Source: Escherichia coli
Lineage (GTDB): Bacteria; Pseudomonadota; Gammaproteobacteria; Enterobacterales; Enterobacteriaceae
NCBI RefSeq assembly: GCF_003334355.1
Contig: NZ_QOWP01000025.1
Reading direction: 5' to 3' (one strand)
DNA length: 57,529 nucleotides
The translations under genes were made by a program, and so were the position numbers. Shown here piece after piece: positions 43,393-46,846 of the stretch. The notes beneath the pieces were generated by a model. That model was not told the origin of the DNA and made no database searches. It saw only the letters and a list, made by a program, of their open reading frames with translations. Positions within the stretch are counted from its first letter, which is position 1; every line of letters begins with the position of its first letter.

Positions 43393-44064
43393 ATGATGAA
43401 GTTACTTCACTTATTTATGGATGAAATCACTATGGATCCTTTGCACGCCGTTTACCTGACCGTAGGACTGTTCGTGATTACTTTTTTTAATCCGGGAGCC
43501 AATCTCTTTGTGGTAGTACAAACCAGCCTGGCTTCCGGTCGACGCGCAGGGGTGCTGACCGGGCTGGGCGTGGCGCTGGGCGATGCATTTTATTCCGGGT
43601 TGGGTTTGTTTGGTCTTGCAACGCTAATTACGCAGTGTGAGGAGATTTTTTCGCTTATCAGAATCGTCGGCGGCGCTTATCTCTTATGGTTTGCGTGGTG
43701 CAGCATGCGCCGCCAGTCAACACCGCAAATGAGCACACTACAACAACCGATTAGCGCCCCCTGGTATGTCTTTTTTCGCCGCGGATTAATTACCGATCTC
43801 TCTAACCCGCAAACCGTTTTATTTTTTATCAGTATTTTCTCAGTAACATTAAATGCCGAAACACCAACATGGGCACGTTTAATGGCCTGGGCGGGGATTG
43901 TGCTCGCATCAATTATCTGGCGAGTTTTTCTTAGTCAGGCGTTTTCTTTGCCCGCTGTGCGTCGTGCTTATGGGCGTATGCAACGCGTTGCCAGTCGGGT
44001 TATTGGTGCAATTATTGGTGTATTCGCGCTACGCCTGATTTACGAAGGGGTGACGCAGCGGTGA
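43393..44064 (+). CDS. yahN: LysE/RhtB-family amino-acid exporter-like membrane protein
   Basis: 223-aa hydrophobic ORF. Confidence 0.85.
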   Translation: MMKLLHLFMDEITMDPLHAVYLTVGLFVITFFNPGANLFVVVQTSLASGRRAGVLTGLGVALGDAFYSGLGLFGLATLITQCEEIFSLIRIVGGAYLLWFAWCSMRRQSTPQMSTLQQPISAPWYVFFRRGLITDLSNPQTVLFFISIFSVTLNAETPTWARLMAWAGIVLASIIWRVFLSQAFSLPAVRRAYGRMQRVASRVIGAIIGVFALRLIYEGVTQR

Positions 44065-44080
44065 GCAGATAATTTACTCT

Positions 44081-44326
44081 CTACGTAATCAACCTGATTT
44101 GCCGAATCACGGCCATCGGCGATGATAGCCCCCGTAATGCGTGGTCCTTATTTCCGATAAGTTTACTTGAGTCTTTAGCTTCCCATTTCAGCCCACTCTC
44201 CCCTGTGTGGGCTTTTTTCATTGGTCTGCCCCATCCTGAATAGCCAAACAATGGCAATGTTCCACTTTGCAGGGATGATAATAAGGGGATCTGATTCAGA
44301 AGAGTTTTGAAAAGTTGGACCGCCAT
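44081..44326 (-). CDS. yahM: Small uncharacterised protein YahM
   Basis: ORF track 44081-44356; trimmed to MAVQLFKTLLNQ (81 aa); identity rests on position and length only. Confidence 0.55.
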   Translation of the reverse strand: MAVQLFKTLLNQIPLLSSLQSGTLPLFGYSGWGRPMKKAHTGESGLKWEAKDSSKLIGNKDHALRGLSSPMAVIRQIRLIT

Positions 44327-44738
44327 CGAGGCCTCGAACCCCGTACCATACAACAATCCTGGTTGTCGTCTGCTCTTCCTGAGGAGCTAATGGCGGTTTT
44401 TGATATGAGCCTTACAGCATATTTTCTGTCAGGCTTGAGTGCGATGCGTAAGATACAGAAAAGACCCCACACAAACATGATGGAATTATGATTTTTTTCA
44501 TATGAATGTCAACCCACACATTCACAAAACATCTGCATGAGATCATTTTTTATACACCGCATGGCTGCGAAACCACTACTGGTGCTTTTTTAAGCGAAGT
44601 GTCGCCGATCACAACAAAATATAGGCGAAAAAAGAGATGGAATGCCTGTTGGCATACAGATATACAGATGAAATGATTACCTGCATTGCGATTCACTCTC
44701 AGGTGGAATAACAATTTGCAGGTGGAACCCTTTCTGAA

Positions 44739-45554
44739 CTAAAGAGTGTAGCGGATTTTAACGTGCTTATTTACAGGATAATATCTGTCACCTAATTCCT
44801 GCACTCTATTAGATATCCATTCATTTAATCGCGCATCATCTCTGTATGTTTTTACGTCCAGAACAGAGAGCAATAACATCACCAGTGATTCAGGAAAAAC
44901 AGGGTAGATATTTTTTAAGTGTAATAATAATCCATGCGCAAGCGCCTGCTTAATGGGCGCGTCTGTCTCCGGAATAGACGACATTTCGCGAAGCCATTTT
45001 TCCACATGCATACACTCTTTCCCTTTAGGGAAAATTCTCAGCAAAGGCATATGGTGTTCAAGAAGAATACATTTGCAATCTGTTCGCACTGAATCGATAA
45101 ACTGCACTAATTTCTTAAGCCCGGTAAAGCGTCCAGCCTGCACGTTTGCTTTAATATCAAGAAACGCATCATCCTGGTCATATACCCAAACTGTCCCTTT
45201 TTGATTTTCAAGTATGTGAAAAACAAACTTAACCGGGTGATCAGGGTAATCCATCCAGTCATAAAATCCAGGGAAATCATTAAACTGCACATTTATGGTG
45301 AGTGCGTTATCGTCTGACCACTCACAGTCTCGTACGGCAGCCATGAGATGAATGAGTTTGTCGTCATCGACTAAATCATCACGACAATCATAAGGATAAT
45401 CATAATATTGTTTAATCAAAACCTTGAATATATCGACACAGGAAACCAGGGAGCTTTTGATATCCTCTGGTAACTGATTGTTTTTAACCGTATTAAGTAT
45501 GCTTTGTTGCGTATATGGCATCAAATTATTGTGCGGAGCTTTTAATGATATCAT
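44739..45554 (-). CDS. yahL: Uncharacterised protein YahL (AT-rich, no recognisable domain)
   Basis: 271-aa ORF MISLKAPHNNLMPYTQQSILNTVKNNQ in a markedly AT-rich stretch. Confidence 0.8.
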   Translation of the reverse strand: MISLKAPHNNLMPYTQQSILNTVKNNQLPEDIKSSLVSCVDIFKVLIKQYYDYPYDCRDDLVDDDKLIHLMAAVRDCEWSDDNALTINVQFNDFPGFYDWMDYPDHPVKFVFHILENQKGTVWVYDQDDAFLDIKANVQAGRFTGLKKLVQFIDSVRTDCKCILLEHHMPLLRIFPKGKECMHVEKWLREMSSIPETDAPIKQALAHGLLLHLKNIYPVFPESLVMLLLSVLDVKTYRDDARLNEWISNRVQELGDRYYPVNKHVKIRYTL

Positions 45555-45721
45555 CGCGATCTCTCTTAAATAAAAATAAACGTCGCAGATAATAAAGCTC
45601 TGATTAAACCAGGCACTATCAGAAATCGCTCATAACTAACGTGTGAAGTATTGTGTACTGGAGGGCGTTAATTTAACAATTTAAATTTACGTTATAGGTT
45701 TTACTGCTACTTTGATATTAT

Positions 45722-45759
45722 TTCGCTCTCCTTAACTAAAAAGTTAAGTGGAGAGCGAA
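45722..45759. other. Near-perfect hairpin (about 16-bp stem, AAAA loop) downstream of yahK; possible terminator or regulatory stem-loop
   Basis: ttcgctctccttaact aaaa agttaagtggagagcgaa; no clear U-tract on either side. Confidence 0.4.
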
Positions 45760-45796
45760 GTTAATATGTTAAACCACAGGGTATTTATTAATTTTT

Positions 45797-46846
45797 TCAG
45801 TCTGTTAGTGTGCGATTATCGATAACAAAACGATATTTCACATCACCGCGCAGCATTCGCTCATAGGCTTCATTAATTTGATCGGCCCGAATCATCTCTA
45901 TATCAGCCACGATGCCATGTTCGGCGCAAAAATCGAGCATCTCCTGAGTTTCTGGAATGCCGCCAATCATAGAACCGGCTATCGCACGGCGTTTCATGAT
46001 CAGGTTGAAAACTTCCGGCGATTTATGCGGTGTCGCAGGCGCACCAACCAGCGTCATGGTGCCATCACGCTTCAGCAAGGTGGTAAAATCGTCGAGATTA
46101 TGTGGCGCAGCTACTGTATTCAAAATGAAATCGAAACTCTTCAGATGAGCCGCCATCTCATCGGCATTGCGTGAGTTAACAACTTCATCGGCCCCCAGGG
46201 CTTTTGCCGCTTCGCGTTTTGCCTCAGAAGTGGTAAATGCCACCACATGTGCCCCCATCGCGTGGGCCAGCTTAATCCCCATATGTCCCAGACCGCCGAT
46301 GCCGACCACGCCCACTTTTTTACCCGGCCCGGCCTGCCAGTGACGTAGCGGCGAATACGTGGTGATCCCTGCACACAACAAAGGAGCCACCGCCGCCAGC
46401 TGCTCTTGCGGGTGACGAATACGCAGAACATATCGCTCATGAACGACGATCTGTTGTGAGTAGCCGCCCAGAGTATGGCCCGGTTCGTCCGGCGTCGGCG
46501 AGTTATAGGTGCCGGTCATGTGATCACAGTAGTTTTCCAACCCGTCTTCACACTCTTCGCAATGTTTACAACTGTCGACAATGCAGCCGACACCGACCAG
46601 ATCGCCCGGCGCATATTTTTCTACCTGATCACCAACGGCTACCACACGCCCCACAATTTCATGACCCGGCACGCAGGGGTAAACCGTCCCCGCCCACTCG
46701 GAACGGACCTGGTGGAGATCGGAATGGCAAACGCCACAGTAAGCGATTTCGATTTTGACATCATTCGGTCCCGGTTCACGCCGGGTGATATCCATCGGTT
46801 CAAGTGGTTGTTTAGCGGAATATGCACCAACAGCTTTGATCTTCAT
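45797..46846 (-). CDS. yahK: NADPH-dependent aldehyde reductase (zinc alcohol dehydrogenase family)
   Basis: 349-aa ORF with GHEIVG zinc-ADH motif and GIGGLGHMG Rossmann motif. Confidence 0.92.
   Translation of the reverse strand: MKIKAVGAYSAKQPLEPMDITRREPGPNDVKIEIAYCGVCHSDLHQVRSEWAGTVYPCVPGHEIVGRVVAVGDQVEKYAPGDLVGVGCIVDSCKHCEECEDGLENYCDHMTGTYNSPTPDEPGHTLGGYSQQIVVHERYVLRIRHPQEQLAAVAPLLCAGITTYSPLRHWQAGPGKKVGVVGIGGLGHMGIKLAHAMGAHVVAFTTSEAKREAAKALGADEVVNSRNADEMAAHLKSFDFILNTVAAPHNLDDFTTLLKRDGTMTLVGAPATPHKSPEVFNLIMKRRAIAGSMIGGIPETQEMLDFCAEHGIVADIEMIRADQINEAYERMLRGDVKYRFVIDNRTLTD

Follow-up and report, generated by a model that had tools for sequence, protein, structure and literature searches.

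Between the core genes yahK and yahN of Escherichia coli lies a 1.7-kb stretch (positions 44081-45796 of the window, by which we mean the whole 57,529-nt stretch analysed, from contig NZ_QOWP01000025.1 of assembly GCF_003334355.1) that carries two annotated orphan genes, yahL and yahM, and a long hairpin, and that raises the question of where this DNA came from and which of its parts work as genes. An earlier note, made from the sequence alone, had taken both genes to be AT-rich, horizontally acquired and probably silenced by H-NS. We consider it likely, for the explanation taken as a whole, that the stretch is an old patch of foreign DNA built of separate units. In the scheme that we propose, the AT-rich body of yahL and its upstream spacer would be bound and silenced by H-NS and StpA, so that yahL would be nearly unexpressed in the wild type and strongly derepressed without the silencers; the hairpin would keep yahK transcription from entering the silenced gene, and some lineages would have deleted yahL. 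On the other side of yahL, a strong and invariant sigma-70 promoter would fire a leaderless transcript, xtpA, whose core would descend from an argN-type pseudo-tRNA carried downstream of Q by lambdoid phages, and the yahM reading frame would be shared between this transcript and a part that runs antisense to the yahN terminator.

The locus was identified by megablast of positions 44000-45900, which matched in 5178 of the 5426 complete E. coli genomes; the RefSeq annotation beneath the match reads yahN, yahM, yahL and yahK, and the genes and coordinates given earlier were correct. The order in the window is prpR-yahO-yahN-yahM-yahL-yahK, that of the E. coli chromosome, in an orientation reversed relative to K-12. 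The biology of the locus is largely known: the genes are annotated, the H-NS dependence is contained in published data, and both YahL and xtpA have been published. The points added here are the argN homology of the tRNA-like sequence in xtpA, the pairing of an invariant RNA with broken reading frames, a lone distant relative of YahL encoded next to a type III translocator module and the probable gene-sized loss of yahL; their significance is mostly one of annotation clean-up. The diverged comparison lineage named L005 below is an Escherichia lineage about 15% diverged and represented by five independent assemblies.

Composition and silencing of yahL

The yahL gene (44739-45554, minus strand; a 271-aa open reading frame (ORF) that is also annotated in RefSeq and K-12) has a G+C content (GC) of 39.0%, with the same value of 39.0% at third codon positions (GC3), against a window mean of 52.4%, and is the lowest in overall GC among the window ORFs of at least 200 aa. 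The spacer between yahK and yahL (45555-45796, minus strand) is AT-rich too, with a GC of 32.2%, and contains the hairpin; the spacer between yahM and yahL is mildly low in GC (42.5%). AT-richness was thus confirmed at yahL and in the spacer upstream of it; it does not extend to yahM, whose GC of 46.7% and GC3 of 50% fall inside the range of ordinary window genes. The composition of yahL is clearly unlike that of its neighbours and the gene is not conserved across Enterobacteriaceae, the two points on which the earlier reading could have failed. The encoded protein (pI 5.8) contains 27 D, 13 Y, 6 C and 5 W residues, which is roughly the richness in these residues that had been described.

Expression in the absence of the silencers could be read from published RNA-seq data (PMC4288151, supplement, sheet hs-wt), where a negative log fold change (logFC) denotes expression lower in the wild type than in the hns stpA mutant. 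In this comparison yahL (b0326) has a logFC of -7.42 (p = 1e-92), corresponding to an expression about 170-fold higher in the mutant, and the look at hns mutants proposed in the earlier note therefore favoured silencing. The flanking genes behave otherwise: yahK rises about 2.5-fold (logFC -1.31), yahN has a logFC of +1.94, and yahM is not significantly changed (+0.53, p = 0.13). At the protein level, YahL lies below 1 part per million (ppm) in the wild type.

The yahL gene resembles the H-NS/StpA-silenced xenogeneic genes of E. coli, the orphans YdjO and YjfZ among them, being likewise AT-rich, taxonomically restricted (to Escherichia), near-silent and derepressed in hns stpA; no mobility genes are adjacent to it. 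The description as horizontally acquired and H-NS-silenced was on these grounds upheld for yahL and withdrawn for yahM, which has a GC of 46.7%, no significant response to loss of the silencers and a frame broken in the L005 lineage. Two observations weigh against the silencing of yahL in its simplest form: the H-NS motif TCGATAAATT shows no local enrichment at yahL, and one transposon sequencing (Tn-seq) study lists the gene as fitness-relevant despite its near-zero expression, which fits simple silencing poorly. Genomic SELEX (systematic evolution of ligands by exponential enrichment) has placed RNA polymerase peaks with three minor sigma factors inside yahL, in keeping with the promiscuous resemblance of AT-rich DNA to promoters. 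The promoter of yahL and its ribosome-binding site would lie in the 45555-45796 spacer, where a candidate ribosome-binding site, AAGAGAG, was found 6 nt before the ATG.

The xtpA transcript, its tRNA-like sequence and yahM

The interval downstream of yahL contains three features that the earlier note had overlooked, namely the xtpA ORF, a tRNA-like sequence and a plus-strand terminator inside the yahM frame. The xtpA ORF (44296-44478, minus strand; 60 aa) is annotated between yahL and yahM in the current K-12 record, and the XtpA peptide of the window is identical to that of K-12 (b4845). According to the RegulonDB v12 paper (PMC10767902), which credits the work to Muto et al. (2022, J Biochem 171:459), xtpA is a leaderless mRNA with a tRNA-like sequence; the xtpA described there shares with the one in the window its locus, its 60-aa ORF, a start (predicted, for the window) on the ATG and the tRNA-like sequence inside the ORF.

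A promoter scan identified, immediately before this ORF, a sigma-70 promoter at 44485-44512 on the minus strand, reading TTGACA-16-CATAAT from 44512 to 44485 with 11 of 12 consensus matches, and its conservation is given below. The predicted +1, at 44478, coincides with the A of the xtpA ATG, 7 nt past the end of the -10 element, which argues for a leaderless xtpA mRNA. The promoter is known in the literature as yahMp; a Reg-Seq preprint confirmed a start site at yahMp and named IHF as its repressor.

ARAGORN found an 81-nt tRNA-like sequence ending in CCA inside the xtpA ORF (44316-44396, minus strand), and its minimum-energy fold is a cloverleaf. The sequence reads CCGCCAT...CGGGG-TTCGAGG-CCTCG-ATGGCGG-T-CCA, with a 7-bp acceptor stem, a T loop and the CCA end, and its anticodon loop, CAGGATT, is non-canonical, as it has A at position 33 and T at position 37 in place of the canonical U33 and purine 37. 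Rfam searches gave only sub-threshold chance matches, and none to the tRNA model (RF00005) in a 271-nt stretch at E ≤ 10 or in 4 kb at E ≤ 1.

By BLASTN against phage genomes, the tRNA-like sequence matched 229 phage records, the best being phiP27 (83.7% identity over 82 nt) and mEp460 (79.5%), while argN (tRNA-Arg UCG) of PA8 is 75% identical; an exact-pattern scan of viral contigs with its 3′ half returned nothing. The phage counterpart occupies the argN position of the ileZ-argN-argO cluster of Shiga toxin (Stx)-converting and other lambdoid phages. Acceptor stem, D arm, T arm and CCA end of the chromosomal sequence are nearly identical to those of argN, and its anticodon arm has been replaced, with phiP27 and mEp460 carrying the same replacement in copies that bear no annotation; a copy in a Yersinia phage is annotated as tRNA-Pseudo-TTG. 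In each of the four phage records examined the copy belongs to the late region; in PA8, mEp460 and YeP1 it follows Q, and in phiP27 it lies upstream of stx. The chromosomal copy, in contrast, is solitary: it stands between yahL and yahN, where phage genes such as Q, stx and the lysis genes, and likewise ileZ and argO, are missing from its surroundings, and unlike phage argN it is transcribed inside an mRNA from a promoter of its own and has no reportable Rfam tRNA score. On the strength of these alignments, the tRNA-like sequence is a homologue of the lambdoid-phage argN-type pseudo-tRNA and gives direct evidence of phage-derived DNA in the locus. If not already reported, this origin would make it a tangible example of a bacterial chromosome in which a phage pseudo-tRNA has become fixed.

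The same promoter plus tRNA-like query matched 145 Salmonella plasmids, mostly conjugative, at 60-80% identity.

Comparison of K-12 with the L005 lineage showed that conservation is concentrated on the RNA. The promoter is identical at 28 of 28 positions and the tRNA-like sequence at all 81, against 88% identity in the 5′ part of the xtpA transcript, 71% in the spacer from the xtpA promoter toward yahL, and 86%, with a 4-nt indel, from 44315 to 44226. The probability of finding 81 unchanged bases at a background identity of 85% is about 2e-6. The promoter and the tRNA-like block are present in 5167 of the 5426 complete genomes, more than carry yahL. The xtpA frame, on the other hand, is cut short at codon 4 (L005 lineage) or codon 58 (L009) by a stop, and the XtpA peptide is hence not conserved everywhere the locus is. 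Judged by this pattern of identities, the constrained element is the RNA together with its promoter. We would go further only tentatively, to the possibility that the functional product between yahL and yahN is a captured lambdoid-phage pseudo-tRNA RNA and neither of the annotated peptides. An effect on the small RNA GcvB has been reported and could, in that case, come from the tRNA-like RNA itself, for example as a decoy for a tRNA-processing or tRNA-binding factor.

The sole variable position seen in the 81 nt is 44374, in the D loop, where the window strain has a private C and K-12, UTI89 and both diverged lineages have A (GCTCCTCAGG vs. GCTCATCAGG).

These features bear directly on yahM, annotated as an 81-aa ORF at 44081-44326 on the minus strand in RefSeq and in K-12. 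In the L005 lineage the yahM frame is interrupted by frameshifts and stops in all five independent assemblies, at a nucleotide identity of 90.6%. Within E. coli the substitutions are all non-synonymous, with 9 non-synonymous and 0 synonymous changes relative to L009 and 6 and 0 relative to UTI89. The T arm and acceptor stem of the tRNA-like sequence take in the yahM start codon and the GAGG before it, and opposite the 3′ half of the frame the plus strand carries a stem, AGCCCAC...GTGGGCT with TTTTTT after it (44190-44220), that resembles an intrinsic terminator in sequence and fold. This stem stands 126 nt after the yahN stop codon, is invariant in all lineages and is likely the yahN terminator. 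It is part of a conserved block, block B (44130-44225, assigned to no strand), in which K-12 and the L005 lineage are identical at 92 of 94 positions. In agreement with this arrangement, yahM and yahN have been listed as a convergent overlapping transcript pair (PMC12288877).

Taken together, it is quite probable that yahM is not a conserved protein-coding gene, and the stretch would be better described as the xtpA/tRNA-like transcript plus the yahN terminator, the name yahM being then an annotation artefact over a real RNA gene. Weighing against this, the frame is intact in E. coli proper and the zero-synonymous pattern rests on only 6-9 changes. The alternative, that yahM encodes a true 81-aa protein and is confined to E. 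coli proper, appears doubtful to us: it can draw on the RefSeq annotation, on an ORF intact in the window, K-12, UTI89 and L009, on the position of GAGG 5 nt before the ATG and on transcript changes reported in several studies, but the xtpA transcript can account for such signals, the stems of the tRNA-like sequence enclose both the ribosome-binding site and the start codon, the 3′ half runs antisense to a perfectly conserved terminator, and the broken frames of the five L005-lineage assemblies and the uniformly non-synonymous changes between E. coli lineages speak against it.

As a separate observation, the block at 44130-44225 (about 95 nt, antisense to the yahM frame) could exceed a terminator and represent, for example, a small RNA from the yahN 3′ untranslated region.

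The hairpin between yahK and yahL

The near-perfect 38-nt hairpin that had been noticed at 45722-45759 proved real. It consists of 16 bp with a 2-nt bulge and a 4-nt loop, its stem being half A-T, and it folds with -23 kcal/mol on the plus strand (z -6.9) and -21.8 kcal/mol on the minus strand (z -8.1), with none of 200 shuffled sequences as stable. It ranks in the top 1.2% of all 52-nt stretches of the window and in the top 0.3% of those below 40% GC; an inverted-repeat finder missed it, bulged as it is. The hairpin starts 37 nt after the yahK stop codon and is assigned here to the minus strand, the yahK sense strand, from its folding and from the comparison of lineages.

All four lineage types have kept the hairpin, with 96.8% of alignment cells paired, against at most 58% when the partners were slid along the alignment. 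L009 carries one fully compensatory change, from U-A to C-G. In the L005 lineage two changes can pair only as G-U on the minus strand, and the fold is accordingly more stable there (-19.0 kcal/mol) than on the plus strand (-10.1 kcal/mol). This minus-only pairing favours an RNA on the yahK strand over a DNA palindrome.

On balance, we favour the reading that the hairpin is a 3′ stem-loop of the yahK mRNA, possibly a weak terminator or an exonuclease block, that would separate yahK from the silenced yahL; such an insulating role fits the hns stpA mutant, in which expression of yahL climbs 170-fold but that of yahK only 2.5-fold. The hairpin resembles intrinsic terminators and protective 3′ stem-loops in being stable and in closely following the stop codon of yahK, on that gene's sense strand. 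It differs from intrinsic terminators in its long 16-bp stem, half A-T, and in further respects that count against a terminator: no U-tract follows the stem, as the minus strand continues AUAAUAUC / AUAAUAUCAAAG, and a consensus terminator scan made no call at the hairpin. Also on the negative side, covariation among the four lineages did not go beyond that of shuffle controls, and one L009 substitution favours the plus strand, on which alone it forms a wobble pair.

That substitution would suit a hairpin that acts instead as a protein-binding palindrome in DNA, or that stops antisense transcripts running from yahL toward yahK. For this alternative, which we regard as unlikely, also speak the plus-strand fold, equally stable in most E. 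coli sequences (-25.0 vs. -22.9), the greater richness in U of the plus strand after the stem (GUUAAUAUGUU) and the spurious intragenic promoters expected in H-NS targets, together with the SELEX peaks in yahL. The L005 changes, however, pair only as minus-strand G-U and break the palindrome at the DNA level, and the distance of only 37 nt from the yahK stop is in keeping with a 3′ element of that gene.

Elsewhere in the window, the most stable AT-rich hairpin lies at 10069-10120 (-31.3 kcal/mol), a palindrome ATACTATAGGGGGGTAT...ATACCCCCCTATAGTAT just upstream of an ORF, in what is presumably the frmR promoter/operator region.

Age, probable loss and relatives of yahL

The distribution of yahL is narrow. 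Among representatives of 100,044 species, yahL matched at two loci only, one in a metagenome bin (99% identical) and the other a 79%-identical copy (P0004) in a genome that is labelled E. coli and serves as a separate species representative. This 79% form occupies the same site, between yahK and yahN, in the five independent assemblies of the L005 lineage. There yahL is intact, with no indel, at a nucleotide identity of 82.8%, against 88.9% for yahK. A tblastn search for YahL found no match in phages, and in plasmids only F-prime plasmids and mislabelled chromosomes. Since the gene is intact at the same site in a lineage about 15% diverged, its acquisition is old; by this comparison, yahL is older than the split from the L005 lineage.

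The ratio of non-synonymous to synonymous substitution rates (dN/dS) of yahL is 0.17-0.19 over a synonymous divergence (dS) of 0.32-0.67, against 0.02-0.04 for yahK. Going by these substitution rates, yahL is a real protein gene under purifying selection that evolves faster than its neighbours. Taxonomically restricted and of old date, yet still under selection, it may serve as a good example of an H-NS-silenced gene.

Against a foreign origin it must be counted that no integrase, insertion sequence (IS) element or attachment-site repeat was seen beside yahL, and that the synonymous divergence of yahL from the L005 lineage is similar to that of the neighbouring genes; the term horizontally acquired therefore reflects, for yahL, only what its composition and distribution show. 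At 343 bp downstream of the gene stands the phage-derived pseudo-tRNA.

The yahL query was covered to at least 80% in 4021 of the 5426 complete genomes, and the gene is absent from about a quarter of them; about a fifth of E. coli genomes would have lost it through a gene-sized deletion. UTI89, a strain of phylogroup B2, represents this type: in UTI89-type genomes about 835 bp are missing (~44726-45560, an interval given without strand), that is, the yahL ORF with about 6 bp upstream and about 13 bp downstream, and no repeats were found to flank the deletion. The yahK-yahL spacer is kept in genomes without yahL. Loss is the more parsimonious reading of the absence in UTI89-type genomes, because the diverged lineage has yahL at the same site. 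YahL has been grouped with YdjO and YjfZ as an E. coli/Shigella-specific protein (PMC11057252); a label of conserved signature is contradicted by its absence from about a quarter of complete E. coli genomes. For the same reason yahL is not a universal E. coli marker, although it serves as one in quantitative PCR (qPCR) assays.

One further form of the gene (L008:4001-4633) has a 168-bp in-frame internal deletion, which leaves a 210-aa product without residues 89-149.

This variant, the absence of the gene from about a fifth of complete genomes, the protein level below 1 ppm and the lack of any assigned domain or fold would all agree with yahL being a functionless, decaying relic, rendered harmless by silencing and encoding a protein that does nothing. 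We hold this to be improbable, as the ORF is intact, of the same length and gapless across lineages at a dS of about 0.3-0.67, the dN/dS of 0.17-0.19 indicates constraint, a remote full-length relative keeps collinear motifs, and a fitness effect has been reported by Tn-seq. The gene under purifying selection remains our preferred reading.

The statement that YahL has no recognisable domains was confirmed: YahL and YahM gave nothing significant against Pfam, NCBIfam, PADLOC and PHROGs (best, SDH_protease, E = 0.0028), and searches of the PDB sequences with YahL as a single sequence and as a profile found no match. A phmmer search of 1.84 billion cluster representatives returned only YahL itself, fragments of it and one remote full-length relative, P0027 (275 aa, 26% identity, E = 1.9e-11), found in rare E. 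coli lineages and aligning over the full length with collinear motifs kept. Word-indexed searches, whether started from YahL, from P0027 or from a joint profile of the two, reached only Escherichia proteins and no further relatives.

Other candidates were set aside. P0009 (50% identity) turned out to be YahL itself, frameshifted on a contig prone to errors, and P0010 (236 aa, on a 2-kb contig), in which YahL residues 71-143 are fused to a response-regulator/HPt sequence, is most likely an assembly chimera. A remote paralogy of YahL with the E. coli orphans of the same length YdjO, YjfZ and YjiC was rejected by BLASTP: the best value against YdjO and the DUF2686 proteins was E = 0.045 over 29 residues, compared with 6e-58 for YjfZ against YjiC, and Pfam found no match to DUF2686, the YjfZ/YjiC family, in YahL.

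Structure prediction was of limited help. AlphaFold modelled YahL from four close sequences with a predicted local distance difference test score (pLDDT) of 48.6; with P0027 added, one of five models reached a pLDDT of 67.3 and a predicted template modelling score (pTM) of 0.66, in which the N-terminus (residues 1-26) is disordered, five strands form a sheet and the C-terminal half is helical. Foldseek against afdb50 returned YahL entries, with low template modelling (TM) scores, and one E. albertii protein (E = 4.7e-4, TM 0.27). The structure prediction and remote-homology search that had been proposed for YahL yielded, in sum, one remote sequence relative, P0027, and no assignable fold.

The E. 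albertii protein, A0ABD7EEI9, the only non-self match of that search, is uncharacterised and 257 aa long, with 15% identity in a full-length alignment; going by the model comparison, it may be a further remote member of the YahL family.

Rare E. coli assemblies (L016:1-20480, GCA_009799345.1; L017) have the gene for P0027 in an island that separates yjiG from yjiJ, and P0027 DNA was absent from the 5426 complete E. coli genomes, also when searched in distant mode. The neighbours of the gene are a gene for a 1350-aa invasin/intimin-like protein, IS remnants and a module like that of Salmonella pathogenicity island 1 (SPI-1), with a TPR chaperone, SseC-family, SipC-like and SipD-family translocators and a HilA-like regulator. 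The chaperone-bearing module is only 66% similar to ygeG, a gene of the E. coli type III secretion system 2 (ETT2). The adjacency of P0027 to this module, with a matching low GC (0.315 for the P0027 gene, 0.31-0.335 for the module), could suggest that YahL belongs to a small type III secretion-linked family of effectors or accessory proteins, its K-12 copy stranded without its system. With the linkage seen for P0027 only and not for YahL, we consider this unlikely, although it is our best, if weak, guess at what YahL does.

Beyond the patch itself, ABC-transporter genes stand upstream of yahK in L001, L004, L005 and L009, which comprise the UTI89-type and diverged lineages, at the place where K-12-type genomes carry yahJ; the whole yah region is therefore structurally variable.

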